NCBI GenBank assembly: GCA_003553795.1
Contig: PWFH01000026.1
Coordinates: 84,711-108,710 of the forward strand
Direction of reading: 5' to 3'
Origin: Egibacter sp.
GTDB lineage: Bacteria > Actinomycetota > Nitriliruptoria > Euzebyales > Egibacteraceae
Length of the DNA stretch: 24,000 nt
Under the pieces are notes generated by a model. It was given only the letters and a program-made list of their open reading frames with translations, was not told where the DNA came from and did not search any database. Below are positions 9,354 to 13,445 of the stretch, in pieces. The position numbers were made by a program, and so were the translations under genes. Numbering within the stretch: position 1 is the stretch's first letter; every line of letters begins with the position of its first letter.

Positions 9354-9701
9354 ATGTCGGAGGCCACGCGCGACCGTGGGACCGCCCGGACACGACGGCG
9401 ACGCGCCGCGGTGCTCGGCGTCGCACTCGGCGCCTTGGCGCTGACCGCAGGCCCGCTCGGCACGGCGTGGGGCGCCGACGGCGAGACGGTCGTGCCCGCG
9501 CAGGTCGGCACCGCTGAGCGCGTCGACCCCGAGGAGGTCCTCGTCGTGGTCGCGCCAGGGGAGACGATGTGGGAGCTGGTCCTGCCCCACGCCCCCGCGG
9601 GCGCCGATCCGCACGCGTTCGTCGCCGAGGTGGCCGCGCGCAACGGGGTCGATCCGGGCCGACTGGAGCCAGGGATGGCGTTGCGGGTGCCCCAGCGGTG
9701 A
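9354..9701 (+). CDS. ChiZ-like SOS-regulated membrane-anchored LysM-domain protein
   Basis: 115 aa. SD GAGGGAG precedes the ATG. The N-terminus is Arg-rich (TRDRGTARTRRRRA), followed by a TM helix (AVLGVALGALALTAGPLG) and a C-terminal LysM motif (VVVAPGETMWELV...VAARNGVDPGRLEPGMALRVP). It is divergent from lexA, with the same architecture and position as M. tuberculosis Rv2719c (from memory). Confidence 0.75.
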   Translation: MSEATRDRGTARTRRRRAAVLGVALGALALTAGPLGTAWGADGETVVPAQVGTAERVDPEEVLVVVAPGETMWELVLPHAPAGADPHAFVAEVAARNGVDPGRLEPGMALRVPQR

Positions 9702-9704
9702 GGC

Positions 9705-10253
9705 CTACGCCTCGGCGGCTCCGCCCATGGACCCCTGGTCCCCGTCCGGATCGGCATCGTCGTGGCCAGCGCCCCCGGTGGCGGGCGCGTCAGCGGCGGG
9801 CTCCTGGGTGCCGAGCGTGGCGAGCTCCCGCTCGAAGTCCTCGGTCCTCGTGAAGCTCTTGTAGACGCTGGCGAAGCGCAGGTAGGCGACCTCGTGGAGC
9901 TCGCGCAGGGCGAGGAGCACCTCGAGTCCCACCTCCTCGCTGGGGACCTCGTGGCGGTGGCTGTCGCGGAGGTGGCCCTCGACCCGGGCGACCGCGCGGC
10001 GCACGGCGGAGGGCTCGATCTCGAGGTTCTTCGTTGCCCGCAGGATGCCGGTCGCGACCTTGTCGCGGTCGAAGAGCTCGAGGTCCCCGCTGCGCTTGCG
10101 CACCCGCAGCACGGGCTGCTCGACCCGCTCGTAGGTCGAGAAGCGCTGGCCGCAGGCGCGGCACGCCCGGCGCCGGCGGACCGCGCCGCCGTCCTCGGCG
10201 CTGCGCGAGTCGATGACGCGGTCCTCGTCGAGCCCACAGTACGGACAGCGCAC
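9705..10253 (-). CDS. nrdR: Transcriptional repressor NrdR (Zn-ribbon + ATP-cone)
   Basis: MRCPYCG...CRACGQRFSTYERV zinc ribbon, then an ATP-cone (VRKRSGDLELFDRDKVATGILRA...). GTG start with SD GAGGAGG 9 nt upstream. There is an acidic, Gly-rich C-terminal tail. Confidence 0.9.
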   Translation of the reverse strand: MRCPYCGLDEDRVIDSRSAEDGGAVRRRRACRACGQRFSTYERVEQPVLRVRKRSGDLELFDRDKVATGILRATKNLEIEPSAVRRAVARVEGHLRDSHRHEVPSEEVGLEVLLALRELHEVAYLRFASVYKSFTRTEDFERELATLGTQEPAADAPATGGAGHDDADPDGDQGSMGGAAEA

Positions 10254-10284
10254 GGTTCACGACCTCCTCTCGACGTGCGGGGCC

Positions 10285-10428
10285 TGTGGATCCCCGGGGA
10301 CTCCTCCACGGCCCCGTCCACCGCATCGACGTCGTCGTCCACGATCCTCGGCGCCCGTCCACACCCCATCCACGGACTTCCGGCGAGCCGTCCAAGATGT
10401 CGTGGCAAGAGCGGGCTGCTCGTCCACA
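10285..10428 (+). promoter_or_regulatory. Phased array of GTCCAC (DnaA-box-like) motifs upstream of nrdR
   Basis: Same-strand hexamers: cTCCAC 10304, GTCCAC 10316, GTCCAC 10337, GTCCAC 10357, ATCCAC 10368, GTCCAA 10390, GTCCAC 10422, plus an inverted ATCCACA at 10285-10291. Start-to-start spacings are 12, 21, 20, 11, 22 and 32 nt. The best 9-mers are TCGTCCACA (8/9), and CCGTCCACA and TCGTCCACG (7/9 each), against the actinobacterial DnaA box TTGTCCACA. Confidence 0.45.
10390..10405 (-). promoter_or_regulatory. Candidate NrdR box A (facing nrdR)
   Basis: The minus strand reads CCACGACATCTTGGAC, which is 13/16 identical to box B. It lies 137-152 nt upstream of the nrdR GTG. It overlaps one unit of the GTCCAC array, so assignment is ambiguous. 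Confidence 0.4.
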
Positions 10429-10510
10429 GGGTCACCTCGCGGGGGCGTCTCTGCCCACGTCATGGCGCTGCTACCGTCGCCGGCAAGAACACCATAGCCG
10501 ATGGATCACA

Positions 10511-10526
10511 CCACAACATCTTGGGT
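10511..10526 (+). promoter_or_regulatory. Candidate NrdR box B (upstream of nrdJ)
   Basis: CCACAACATCTTGGGT. The core CACAACATCTTGGG fits the published NrdR-box pattern acaCwAtATaTwgtgt at 13 of 14 core positions by my alignment. Confidence 0.55.
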
Positions 10527-10541
10527 CGGGTGGGTTCGAGC

Positions 10542-10557
10542 GTCATGCATCTTGGGG
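10542..10557 (+). promoter_or_regulatory. Candidate NrdR box C (tandem partner of box B)
   Basis: GTCATGCATCTTGGGG shares CATCTTGGG with box B at exactly 31 nt offset, the typical tandem NrdR-box spacing. The left half-site is degenerate. Confidence 0.45.
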
Positions 10558-10676
10558 AATTCTCCCTCACACCTGCTTGACGCCGCCCCCGGGACGAGGC
10601 AAGGTAGCGAGGCCGGCACGGCAAATCACAAGCTTGGAGTTCCACCAACGGGGGCTTCGCCCAGCGAGGAGTTCAC

Positions 10677-13445
10677 ATGGTCACCACACGTCAGGCCCTG
10701 CGCGCGGTCGAGTCCGACGGCCACACCGGCCTCAAGCTCGACCGGCACTTCACCACCGATGGTGCGCACCCCTACGACGAGGTGTCGTGGGAGCGGCGTG
10801 ATGCGGTGATCACCGACTGGAAGACCGGCGAGGTCGCCTTCGAGCAGCGCGACGTCGAGTTCCCCACGAGCTGGTCGCTCAACGCCACGACGATCGTCGC
10901 GCAGAAGTACTTCCGCGGGACGCTGGGCACCCCCGAGCGCGAGTCGAGCGTGCGACACATGATCGACCGCGTCGCCGACACCATCACGCGCTGGGGTGTC
11001 GACGATGGCTACTTCGCCGACGAGGAGTCCGCGGAGGTCTTCAACCACGAGCTCAAGCACCTGCTCGTCAACCAGAAGATGGCCTTCAACAGCCCCGTCT
11101 GGTTCAACTGCGGTGTCGAGGACAAGCCGCAGTGCTCGGCCTGCTTCATCCTCTCGGTCGAGGACCAGATGAGCTCGATCCTCAACTGGTACGTCGAGGA
11201 GGGCACGATCTTCAAGGGCGGCTCGGGCTCGGGGGTCAACCTCTCCAACATCCGCTCGAGCCTCGAGCCGCTGCGTGGCGGCGGGCAGGCCTCCGGCCCG
11301 GTGAGCTTCATGCGCGGCGCCGACGCCTCGGCGGGCACGATCAAGTCCGGCGGCAAGACCCGTCGCGCCGCGAAGATGGTCATCCTCGACGTCGACCACC
11401 CCGACGTCGAGGAGTTCATCTGGTGCAAGCGCAACGAGGAGATGAAGTCCCGCGCGCTCGCCGGCGCCGGCTTCGACATGAGCTTCGACAGCGCTGACTC
11501 CGCGACGATCCAGTACCAGAACGCGAACAACTCCGTCCGCGTCGACGACGAGTTCATGCGGGCCGTCGAGCAGGGCCGTGACTACGACCTCAAGGCCGTC
11601 ACGACCGGCGAGTCGCTCAAGACCGTCAACGCCCGCGACCTCATGGACCAGATCGCCCAGGCGGCCTGGGAGTGCGCCGACCCCGGGATGCAGTACGACA
11701 CGACGATCAACGACTGGCACACCACGCCCAACGCCGGTCGCATCAACGGCTCGAACCCCTGCTCGGAGTACATGCACCTCGACAACTCCGCCTGCAACCT
11801 CGCGAGCCTCAACCTCCGCAAGTTCGAGAAGGGCGGGGTCTTCAACGTCGACGACTTCACCCGCGCGGTGGAGATCACCTTCACCGCCCAGGAGATCATC
11901 GTCGGCAACTCCAGCTACCCGACCGAGCGCATCGCCGAGAACGCCCGCGCCTACCGCCAGCTCGGGCTCGGCTACGCCAACCTCGGCGGCCTGCTCATGA
12001 GCCAGGGGCTGGCCTACGACTCCGACGAGGGCCGGGCCTGGGCCGGGGCGATCACCGCGCTCATGACCGGTCACGCCTACCGCACCTCGACCGAGCTCGC
12101 GCGGGTGCAGGGGCCGTTCGAGGGCTATGAGCGGGACCGCGACGGCATGCTCCGGGTGCTCGCCAAGCACCGCGACGCCGCGGAGGCCCTCGACGACGAG
12201 CGCGCGCCCGCGGGCGTCCTCGACGCCGCGCGCCATGCGTGGAACGAGGCCGTGGAGGCCGGCACCGAGCATGGCGTGCGCAACGCCCAGGCCTCGGTCC
12301 TCGCGCCGACCGGGACCATCGGGCTCATGATGGACTGCGACACCACCGGCATCGAGCCCGACCTCGGGCTGGTGAAGATGAAGAAGCTCTCCGGTGGCGG
12401 TTCGATGCGCATCGTCAACCACACGGTGCCCGCCGCGCTCGAGAAGCTCGGCTACCAGCCCGAGCAGGTCGAGGCGATCGTCGCCTACATCGACAAGCAC
12501 TCGACGATCGAGGGCGCGCCGGCGCTCAGGGAGGAGCACCTCCCGGTCTTCGACTGCGCGATGGGCACCCGGTCGATCGCGCCCATGGGGCACGTGAAGA
12601 TGATGGGTGCGGTGCAGCCGTTCATCTCCGGGGCGATCTCGAAGACGATCAACCTGCCGGAGTCGGCGACCGTCGAGGACGTCGCCGAGACCTACATGGA
12701 GGGATGGCGCCTCGGGCTCAAGGCCGTGGCGATCTACCGCGACAACTGCAAGGTCGCCCAGCCGCTCGCCATCGCCAAGGACGAGTCCAACGAGGCGAAG
12801 GCCCCGGCGACCAAGGAGGAGGCCGCCGAGCGCGGTGTCACCCGTCGGCGCCTGCCCAAGCAGCGCCCGAGCCAGACGATCTCCTTCACCGTCGGCGACG
12901 CCGAGGGCTACCTCACCGCCGGTGAGTACCCCGGCGACGGCATCGGGGAGATGTTCGTCAAGCTCGGCAAGCAGGGCTCGACGCTGTCGGGGGTCATGGA
13001 CGCGTTCGCCATCGCGGTGTCGATCGGGCTGCAGTACGGCGTGCCGCTCGAGGAGTTCGTGAAGAAGTTCACGAACATGCGCTTCGAGCCGGCCGGCATG
13101 ACCGACGACCCCGAGGTGAAGTTCGCCTCGAGCGTCCTCGACTACATGTTCCGACGGCTCGCGATCGAGTACCTGCCCGCCGAGACCCGCCAGGAGCTCG
13201 GGATCTACTCTCTCGAGGAGCGCAACGCCCAACTCGACGCGCAGTACGGGCCGGCGCCAGAGAAGGCGCAGGAGCCGACCGTCGACGTCGAGGGCCAGAC
13301 GGTGCTGCCGGTCGCCGAGGGACGCTCGGAGATCGACGACATCTACGGCGACGCGCCGATGTGCTTCTCCTGCGGCGTGAAGATGCAGCGCTCCGGGGCG
13401 TGCCACGTCTGCGCCCAGTGCGGCACGACGACCGGCTGCTCGTAG
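10677..13445 (+). CDS. nrdJ: Class II (adenosylcobalamin-dependent) ribonucleoside-diphosphate reductase NrdJ
   Basis: 922 aa with SD GAGGAG 5 nt before the ATG. RNR motifs are present: FNSPVWFNCG, SACFI, GGSGSGVNLSNIR, GSNPCSEY and SISKTINLP-like GAISKTINLPE. The Cys-rich C-terminal tail (CFSCGVKMQRSGACHVCAQCGTTTGCS) is typical of NrdJ. Confidence 0.95.
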   Translation: MVTTRQALRAVESDGHTGLKLDRHFTTDGAHPYDEVSWERRDAVITDWKTGEVAFEQRDVEFPTSWSLNATTIVAQKYFRGTLGTPERESSVRHMIDRVADTITRWGVDDGYFADEESAEVFNHELKHLLVNQKMAFNSPVWFNCGVEDKPQCSACFILSVEDQMSSILNWYVEEGTIFKGGSGSGVNLSNIRSSLEPLRGGGQASGPVSFMRGADASAGTIKSGGKTRRAAKMVILDVDHPDVEEFIWCKRNEEMKSRALAGAGFDMSFDSADSATIQYQNANNSVRVDDEFMRAVEQGRDYDLKAVTTGESLKTVNARDLMDQIAQAAWECADPGMQYDTTINDWHTTPNAGRINGSNPCSEYMHLDNSACNLASLNLRKFEKGGVFNVDDFTRAVEITFTAQEIIVGNSSYPTERIAENARAYRQLGLGYANLGGLLMSQGLAYDSDEGRAWAGAITALMTGHAYRTSTELARVQGPFEGYERDRDGMLRVLAKHRDAAEALDDERAPAGVLDAARHAWNEAVEAGTEHGVRNAQASVLAPTGTIGLMMDCDTTGIEPDLGLVKMKKLSGGGSMRIVNHTVPAALEKLGYQPEQVEAIVAYIDKHSTIEGAPALREEHLPVFDCAMGTRSIAPMGHVKMMGAVQPFISGAISKTINLPESATVEDVAETYMEGWRLGLKAVAIYRDNCKVAQPLAIAKDESNEAKAPATKEEAAERGVTRRRLPKQRPSQTISFTVGDAEGYLTAGEYPGDGIGEMFVKLGKQGSTLSGVMDAFAIAVSIGLQYGVPLEEFVKKFTNMRFEPAGMTDDPEVKFASSVLDYMFRRLAIEYLPAETRQELGIYSLEERNAQLDAQYGPAPEKAQEPTVDVEGQTVLPVAEGRSEIDDIYGDAPMCFSCGVKMQRSGACHVCAQCGTTTGCS

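Follow-up and report, generated by a model that had tools for sequence, protein, structure and literature searches.

Organization of the nrdR-nrdJ locus

The window, by which we mean the whole 24,000-nucleotide stretch of DNA analyzed here (positions refer to it unless a contig is named), has a GC content of 74% and belongs to a host genome of 3.13 Mb, present in 231 contigs and 96.5% complete. The genes of interest follow each other in the order hflX (+), lexA (-), a LysM gene (+), nrdR (-), a 423-bp spacer and nrdJ (+). The nrdR gene (9705..10253, - strand) has a GTG start and encodes a protein of 182 aa carrying the Pfam domains Zn_ribbon_NrdR (3.3e-20) and ATP-cone (8.9e-16); its ribosome-binding site, GAGGAGG, was read from the sequence at 10263-10269 on the same strand. 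The closest named relatives of this NrdR come from MAGs of Egibacteraceae (60%) and Nitriliruptoraceae (59%), which makes a Nitriliruptoria-like organism probable; an exact protein look-up matched two anonymous Logan contigs only. On the other side of the spacer, nrdJ (10677..13445, + strand) encodes a class II, B12-dependent ribonucleotide reductase (Pfam Ribonuc_red_lgC 2.3e-145, Ribonuc_red_2_N 2.9e-20). In the 96.5% complete genome, nrdJ gave the one match to a ribonucleotide reductase (RNR) large subunit and is the sole RNR found; at this completeness, no class I small subunit was detected.

The nrdR gene (region 9354-10253 of the window) is inverted with respect to both lexA-LysM and nrdJ and converges with the LysM gene, an arrangement kept in 29/29 relatives with data (L002-L030). 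To place the locus in an evolutionary context, we used a conservation sample that covers 30 genomes of this order and class and counts the nrdR locus of the window as one of its 30 loci. In 29 of the 30 loci, nrdR and nrdJ diverge across a spacer of 366-540 bp; the exception, L031 of family f4, lacks nrdJ upstream of nrdR.

Within the spacer, positions 10283-10430 hold an array composed of four exact GTCCAC hexamers on the + strand, three weaker hexamers on the same strand and one inverted copy. The exact hexamers start at 10316, 10337, 10357 and 10422, the weaker ones are CTCCAC (10304), ATCCAC (10368) and GTCCAA (10390), and an inverted ATCCAC occupies 10286-10291 on the - strand. All eight hexamers of the original prediction were located at these positions, and its spacings of 12, 21, 20, 11, 22 and 32 nt were reproduced, as were the matches of three 9-mers to TTGTCCACA (TCGTCCACA with 8/9, CCGTCCACA and TCGTCCACG with 7/9 each). 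Of its seven same-strand hexamers, all are where they were said to be, but GTCCAA does not hold as an array member: it falls within an NrdR-box-like element at 10390-10405 and is better counted as part of this putative NrdR operator than as a DnaA box.

We scored the individual sites with a box matrix that was trained on the dnaA flanks of relatives, leaving out the host genome, and then scanned over the host genome. Nearest to nrdR, 30 bp from its start codon, lies an inverted weak DnaA-box-like site (GGGATCCACAGG, 10283..10294, - strand, 7.4 bits), of which TCCACAGG is invariant in a same-genus alignment. All other sites are on the + strand. A weak DnaA-box-like site with a core conserved within the genus (CTCCTCCACGGC, 10301..10312, 6.8 bits) is followed by three predicted DnaA boxes, namely CCCGTCCACCGC (10313..10324, 9.3 bits, 9-mer 6/9), present at the same position in 3/3 genomes of the genus, and GTCGTCCACGAT (10334..10345, 11.3 bits, 9-mer 7/9) and CCCGTCCACACC (10354..10365, 10.3 bits, 9-mer 7/9), both seen in the matrix scan and the genus alignment. 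A further weak DnaA-box-like site, CCCATCCACGGA (10365..10376, 6.2 bits), is placed 11 nt past the preceding box, and its CCGTGGATGGGGTGTGGACG is unchanged across the genus. The strongest predicted DnaA box, CTCGTCCACAGG (10419..10430, 14.6 bits), contains the 8/9 9-mer TCGTCCACA and, in the form CTGTGGACGAG, is likewise unchanged across the genus. The array is therefore made up of one strong box, three medium and three weak sites, one of the latter inverted. All sites of the nrdR-nrdJ spacer scoring at least 5.5 bits fall within 10283-10430, except for one weak match at 10637. The consensus of the predicted boxes, YYGTCCACAG, is the high-GC form of TTATCCACA.

The spacer also contains putative NrdR operators and candidate promoters. 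A single NrdR-box-like operator of 16 nt, CCACGACATCTTGGAC (10390..10405, - strand), which includes GTCCAA, sits in a six-turn gap of the array. An equivalent NrdR-box-like element, CCACnACATnTnGTGG, is found within the corresponding 62-67-bp gap in at least 10 genera, and this recurrence of a single NrdR box inside the array suggests that NrdR autoregulates nrdR. Tandem NrdR boxes, ACCACAACATCTTGGGT and GTCATGCATCTTGGGGA with a 31-nt offset (10510..10558, + strand), follow 80 bp beyond the array. Pointing toward nrdJ, a candidate extended -10 element, TGCTACCGT (10469..10477, + strand), resembles the conserved word TGnTAsssT, which occurs 181-221 bp before the nrdJ start in 12/29 relatives and 253 bp before it in one more; measured from this element, the strongest predicted box would lie ~45-50 bp upstream. 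A candidate nrdJ promoter of the form TTGACG-N17-CAAGGT (10577..10605, + strand) is shared by the three genus genomes and two further relatives, with CCTTGAC enriched in 15/27 spacers. Both promoter positions are tentative, since a consensus promoter and terminator scan of 10200-10720 returned no match and the candidates were placed by conserved words alone.

The array is conserved and helically phased in relatives

In the 30-genome sample, a GTCCAC-type hexamer was present at most 500 bp upstream of nrdR in 29/30 loci and lay on the nrdR-sense strand in 28/30, the nrdR-sense strand in relatives corresponding to the + strand orientation in the window. We then performed an unbiased 7-mer tally over 27 genus-level nrdR-nrdJ spacers. 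TCCACAG was found 47 times as compared to 3.5 expected, in 24/27 spacers, and GTCCACA 44 times as compared to 5.3 expected, while the reverse word CTGTGGA had only 7 copies, reflecting a near-uniform box orientation. The remaining enriched words were those of NrdR boxes, which rank among the most enriched in these spacers, and CTTGAC. Conservation of the array upstream of nrdR, proposed as a check on the original prediction, thus extends to 24/27 genus-level relatives. At closer range, an alignment of three genomes of the same genus revealed that box columns are 84% invariant vs 47% elsewhere (p = 2.5e-6), each box forming an island of identity. About 50 Acidimicrobiia nrdR loci, analyzed as a control, contained almost no boxes.

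The distances between neighboring sites are equally regular. Among the relatives, 86 distances from one box to the next form discrete classes of 10-12, 20-22, 30-33, 41-44, 53-55 and 62-67 bp, the 10-12-bp class being the commonest. A period of 10.75 bp fitted best (mean cosine 0.75), and 0/10000 jittered controls reached this cosine. The helical phasing that had been claimed for the single locus therefore appears as a period of ~10.7 bp across relatives, and such quantised gaps argue for recognition as duplex DNA. In addition, a distal box placed 62-67 bp from the proximal cluster recurs across many genera.

The sites resemble DnaA boxes of the dnaA region

The spacer between dnaA and dnaN of the host contains CGTCCACAG twice, together with GTGTCCACG and CTGTCCACC, and the dnaA promoter carries TTGTCCACA, GCGTCCACA and GATCCACAG. 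The motif of the array is thus present at the organism's own oriC region, and CGTCCACAG is common to the strongest array box and the two copies in the dnaA-dnaN spacer. The density of boxes per strand position amounts to 4.8e-3 upstream of nrdR and 3.4e-3 downstream of dnaA, as compared to 3.0e-4 genome-wide.

To compare the sites beyond their shared core, we used a flank test, in which 86 nrdR-upstream boxes resembled 130 dnaA-region boxes (from 29 relatives) and were unlike 1861 genome-wide GTCCAC hexamers. The boxes had T at -1 in 42-59% (7% for genome-wide GTCCAC), A at +1 in 39-94% (15%) and G at +2 in 50-69% (32%), so that the nrdR-side boxes read [T/C][T/C]GTCCAC-A-G. A second line of evidence came from G026, a relative with ~50% GC, whose equivalent spacer contains TTATCCACAG, TTATCCACAA and TTCTCCACAG at spacings of 20, 21, 11, 11 and 52 bp, phased like the other arrays. 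Compared at the level of sequence, these words are the canonical DnaA box TTATCCACA.

In the matrix scan of the host genome, the leading non-coding clusters were C71:11139, the rplI-dnaB spacer, the dnaA promoter, the nrdR-nrdJ array and the dnaA-dnaN spacer; this placement of the locus in the top five is partly circular, since GTCCAC, the core imposed on the matrix, was taken from the array under study. Two lines of evidence, and no others, do not depend on this pre-set core: the flank test and the low-GC relative. The contaminant contig C137 was removed before clusters were ranked. The proposal that the repeats are DnaA boxes is supported by the motif at oriC and dnaA, the matrix ranking and the conservation data, and we consider it very likely that the array sites are DnaA boxes with DnaA as their binder.

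Alternative explanations for the repeats

Could the cluster have arisen by chance from the GC-rich composition? GTCCAC is not enriched across the window (19 found vs 17.8 expected), and another four-box cluster of the genome, on C121, is inside coding sequence. These observations would fit a chance origin. However, the genome frequency of GTCCAC, 3.0e-4 per strand position, predicts 0.033 copies in the 112-bp core of the array (the earlier estimate of ~0.05 was a fair one), and only ~0.011 same-strand clusters of at least four GTCCAC in 112 bp are expected per 3.1-Mb genome. The genome contains only three clusters of at least four GTCCAC within 150 bp. Moreover, conservation, phasing and orientation persist in 24/27 genera. 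We therefore give next to no weight to a chance outcome, which is effectively refuted by conservation, phasing and same-genus invariance. A more specific alternative is that the repeats are operators of another regulator arranged head-to-tail at 11-bp intervals, with a half-site that resembles the DnaA box by coincidence, for example of the OmpR-family proteins MtrA or PhoP, or of an unidentified factor. Operators of the OmpR family are typically same-orientation repeats at 10-12 bp, and direct repeats of ~11 bp are indeed present, 10-12 bp being the commonest gap class. The mycobacterial MtrA motif is a 9-nt direct repeat with 2-nt spacing and the core G-T/A-n-A-C/T (PMC6265350), one deletion away from GTCCAC. 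Yet in the 27 spacers the MtrA-type word GTCACAG occurred once vs 1.75 expected and the PhoP-type word GTTCACA was absent, which leaves the PhoP/MtrA-type alternative of the original prediction without support. An OmpR-family operator was likewise rejected when GTnAC (MtrA) or GTTCACC (PhoP) was taken as half-site, as the word counts did not agree with either. The box flanks agree with those of dnaA and oriC boxes, the low-GC relative G026 carries canonical TTATCCACA, and further high-ranking clusters of this motif occur at oriC, in the dnaA promoter and ahead of dnaB. All of this speaks against a different regulator, which we regard as improbable.

If DnaA is the binder, the array might still serve mainly as a titration or nucleotide-state site of the datA/DARS type that tunes free DnaA-ATP and not nrd transcription. 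That DnaA can be buffered by box clusters away from oriC is established for E. coli and has been reported for Bacillus and Streptomyces. The array is among the densest box clusters of the genome, at least equal to the dnaA-dnaN spacer, and a further leading cluster, C71:11139-11302, is flanked by converging genes and serves no obvious promoter. Against titration as the main role, lineages and gene arrangements that are unrelated to each other repeatedly have arrays beside nrdJ or nrdR-nrdJ, a pattern pointing to a link with nrd expression; the position of the NrdR operator inside the array is fixed, and the locus is 1.2-1.6 Mb from dnaA in complete relatives, away from the origin. This role is thus possible but unlikely. 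The repeats might also act as RNA, either as CUGUGGAC in the nrdR leader or as UCCACAG toward nrdJ, being bound by protein or forming a structure. The strong strand bias (47 vs 7) would be in line with such a function, and the boxes of actinomycete nrdR-nrdJ operons, which sit downstream of the NrdR boxes and ahead of the ribosome-binding site, are probably within the leader. A spacing quantised at 10.7 bp, however, is a property of double-stranded DNA, and the motif would run in the sense direction in operon leaders and in the antisense direction in the nrdR leader of this order. Folding was not in excess (z = -0.39 and +0.49 for the two strands), and Rfam gave no match in the window (gathering threshold), in the spacer (E <= 5) or in seven related loci. 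A structured RNA or riboswitch was rejected on these two grounds, and a role as RNA in any form seems very improbable. An origin of replication comprises DnaA boxes and an AT-rich unwinding element and is usually located near dnaA. We rejected oriC as an explanation, as an AT-rich unwinding element is missing (the array has 70% GC, and the lowest GC fraction of any 30-bp segment in the spacer is 0.47) and dnaA is on another contig, as well as 1.2-1.6 Mb distant in complete relatives.

Relation of the array to nrdR and nrdJ

The original prediction placed the array on the promoter side of nrdR. This is correct for the window, where the array abuts the nrdR ribosome-binding site and reaches from 30 bp to ~175 bp upstream of the start codon, but it does not hold across lineages, where boxes accompany nrdJ. 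Within the order, the array center is 316 +/- 43 bp from nrdJ and 124 +/- 56 bp from nrdR, its position being slightly steadier relative to nrdJ. In four relatives with long spacers, boxes start ~180-200 bp from nrdR, so the argument that they occlude nrdR expression fails there. In the sister family f4, nrdR (L031) is ~10 kb away and without boxes, and nrdJ, which has no divergent neighbor there, retains a 12-bp double box ahead of its NrdR boxes. An nrdR-nrdJ operon is preceded by 3-5 TCCACAG boxes in Actinoplanes, Aeromicrobium, Propioniciclava and an uncultured actinobacterium, where they follow the NrdR boxes and come before the ribosome-binding site.

In a sample of 59 loci from the phylum, phased arrays were present in family f1, parts of f4 and f13, f36, f48 and f51; in f36 they accompany nrdJ alone, without adjacent nrdR, and in f48 and f51 they belong to operons. 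The distribution is patchy, as arrays were absent from f5, f11, f17, f18, the large-genome family f23 (0-1 box) and others in this sample. Judging from these gene arrangements, the boxes go with nrdJ rather than nrdR across lineages. The safest statement is that the predicted array would control the nrd region in its entirety, with nrdR as an extra proximal target in this order.

A putative link between replication initiation and DNA-precursor supply

Taken together, we propose that 10283-10430 is a cis-regulatory DnaA-box array common to the divergent nrdR and nrdJ genes, which probably couples the supply of DNA precursors with replication start. We consider this assignment likely, including the full mechanism outlined here. 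All array sites are on one face of the helix and, except for the inverted site, share one orientation. DnaA, probably in its ATP form, would nucleate on the strong box at 10419-10430 and spread cooperatively over the weaker phased boxes, and owing to this cooperativity, occupancy of the array should follow the initiation potential of the cell. With the array beginning 30 bp before the start codon of nrdR, a promoter for this gene must be located inside or beyond it, and bound DnaA would therefore cover that promoter or hinder elongation, so that nrdR expression would fall. Toward the other side, the DnaA oligomer would sit just upstream of the candidate promoters directed at nrdJ and may act on those directly. 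The net effect would be that expression of the sole ribonucleotide reductase is coupled to replication initiation.

A bolder version of this mechanism, which we find doubtful, is a two-way device in which a DnaA-ATP filament shuts nrdR and opens nrdJ at initiation, while NrdR in the gap acts back on the filament. NrdR loaded with dATP/ATP would bend the DNA of the six-turn gap, thereby breaking or stabilising the filament, and the dNTP pool could feed back on the DnaA held by the cluster and hence on initiation potential. The array upstream of dnaB, described below, might be part of the same balancing circuit.

For E. coli nrdAB, a DnaA-ATP/ADP switch model was reportedly put forward by Gon (2006) and Olliver (2010). 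The locus described here resembles E. coli nrdAB and nrdDG in that predicted DnaA boxes lie beside NrdR operators in front of RNR genes, adjacent boxes are co-oriented with 11-12 bp from center to center, and initiation would be linked to dNTP supply. E. coli DnaA binds double boxes that are 2-3 bp apart at nrdA and nrdD (PMC11317965). Unlike this pair, the present array has seven or eight phased sites over ~150 bp, is associated with a class II enzyme (nrdJ), belongs to a control region common to divergent nrdR, and has a single NrdR operator embedded in a fixed six-turn gap. There is also a likeness to the E. coli origin. At oriC, arrays of low-affinity DnaA sites in the same orientation guide growth of the DnaA-ATP oligomer, and here, too, head-to-tail sites ~11 bp apart are anchored by a stronger box. 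By analogy, this layout suggests cooperative filling. Different from the oriC arrays, the locus is not an origin, and many of its gaps span two to six turns instead of one.

In Streptomyces coelicolor and Cutibacterium acnes, the nrdR-nrdJ pair is controlled by tandem NrdR boxes (PMC9110341, PMC3848588). These organisms share the gene pair and the tandem NrdR boxes with the present locus, whereas nrdR is inverted relative to nrdJ throughout this order, and the promoter studies do not mention DnaA boxes (PMC9110341, PMC3848588). Judging by these studies and by the 0-1 box of the large-genome family f23, the model actinobacteria studied for nrdR-nrdJ appear to be without the array. This may explain why our literature search, though incomplete, found no paper on actinobacteria that connects nrdR or nrdJ with DnaA boxes. 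Since one ribonucleotide reductase, with one control region, serves this organism, a DnaA array at this place would be the single meeting point of replication initiation and dNTP supply. The connection between DnaA and RNR known from E. coli would then hold for class II enzymes as well, and in a deep order of actinobacteria. New with respect to the E. coli circuit would be the lineage, the enzyme class and the larger, strictly phased layout that is interleaved with an NrdR operator. Actinoplanes and Aeromicrobium, as cultured carriers of the array, would make this idea testable.

Further DnaA-box clusters in the genome and the order

In the host genome (G000), a second phased cluster is located in the rplI-dnaB spacer (C7:67956-68058, L144). 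It consists of CTGTGGACG, CGTCCACAG, CGTCCACAGG and CTGTCCACC, spaced by ~42 and 21 bp. Of the order's three families, two have conserved phased arrays upstream of dnaB, namely f1 (sense) and f3 (antisense); none was found in family f2. In B. subtilis, cells survive otherwise lethal over-initiation when nrdR is lost or the helicase level is lowered (PMC9825946). The dnaB-upstream array fits this genetics, such that the two non-origin arrays of the present organism are at loci equivalent to those identified in B. subtilis.

The top-scoring native cluster of DnaA boxes, with eight sites, is found at C71:11139-11302, in a spacer of ~500 bp onto which a Zincin_2 metallopeptidase gene and a lipoprotein gene converge with their 3' ends. 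As no promoter is obviously served by it, we consider this cluster a candidate orphan site for DnaA titration.

The dnaA neighborhood of G026 (C4, L176; same order, ~50% GC, 2.1-Mb genome) differs from that of the host in gene content. Here, dnaA is followed by rpmH and rnpA, not dnaN, and has few boxes nearby, and the origin region appears rearranged.

Finally, eight short contigs in this 74%-GC genome, among them C137, C129, C149, C184 and C187, have a GC content of 36-57% and are probably binning contaminants. One of these, C137, contained the top-scoring cluster overall and was excluded, as it has 48% GC and a dense set of TTATCCACA words that mark it as an origin-like region of another organism.
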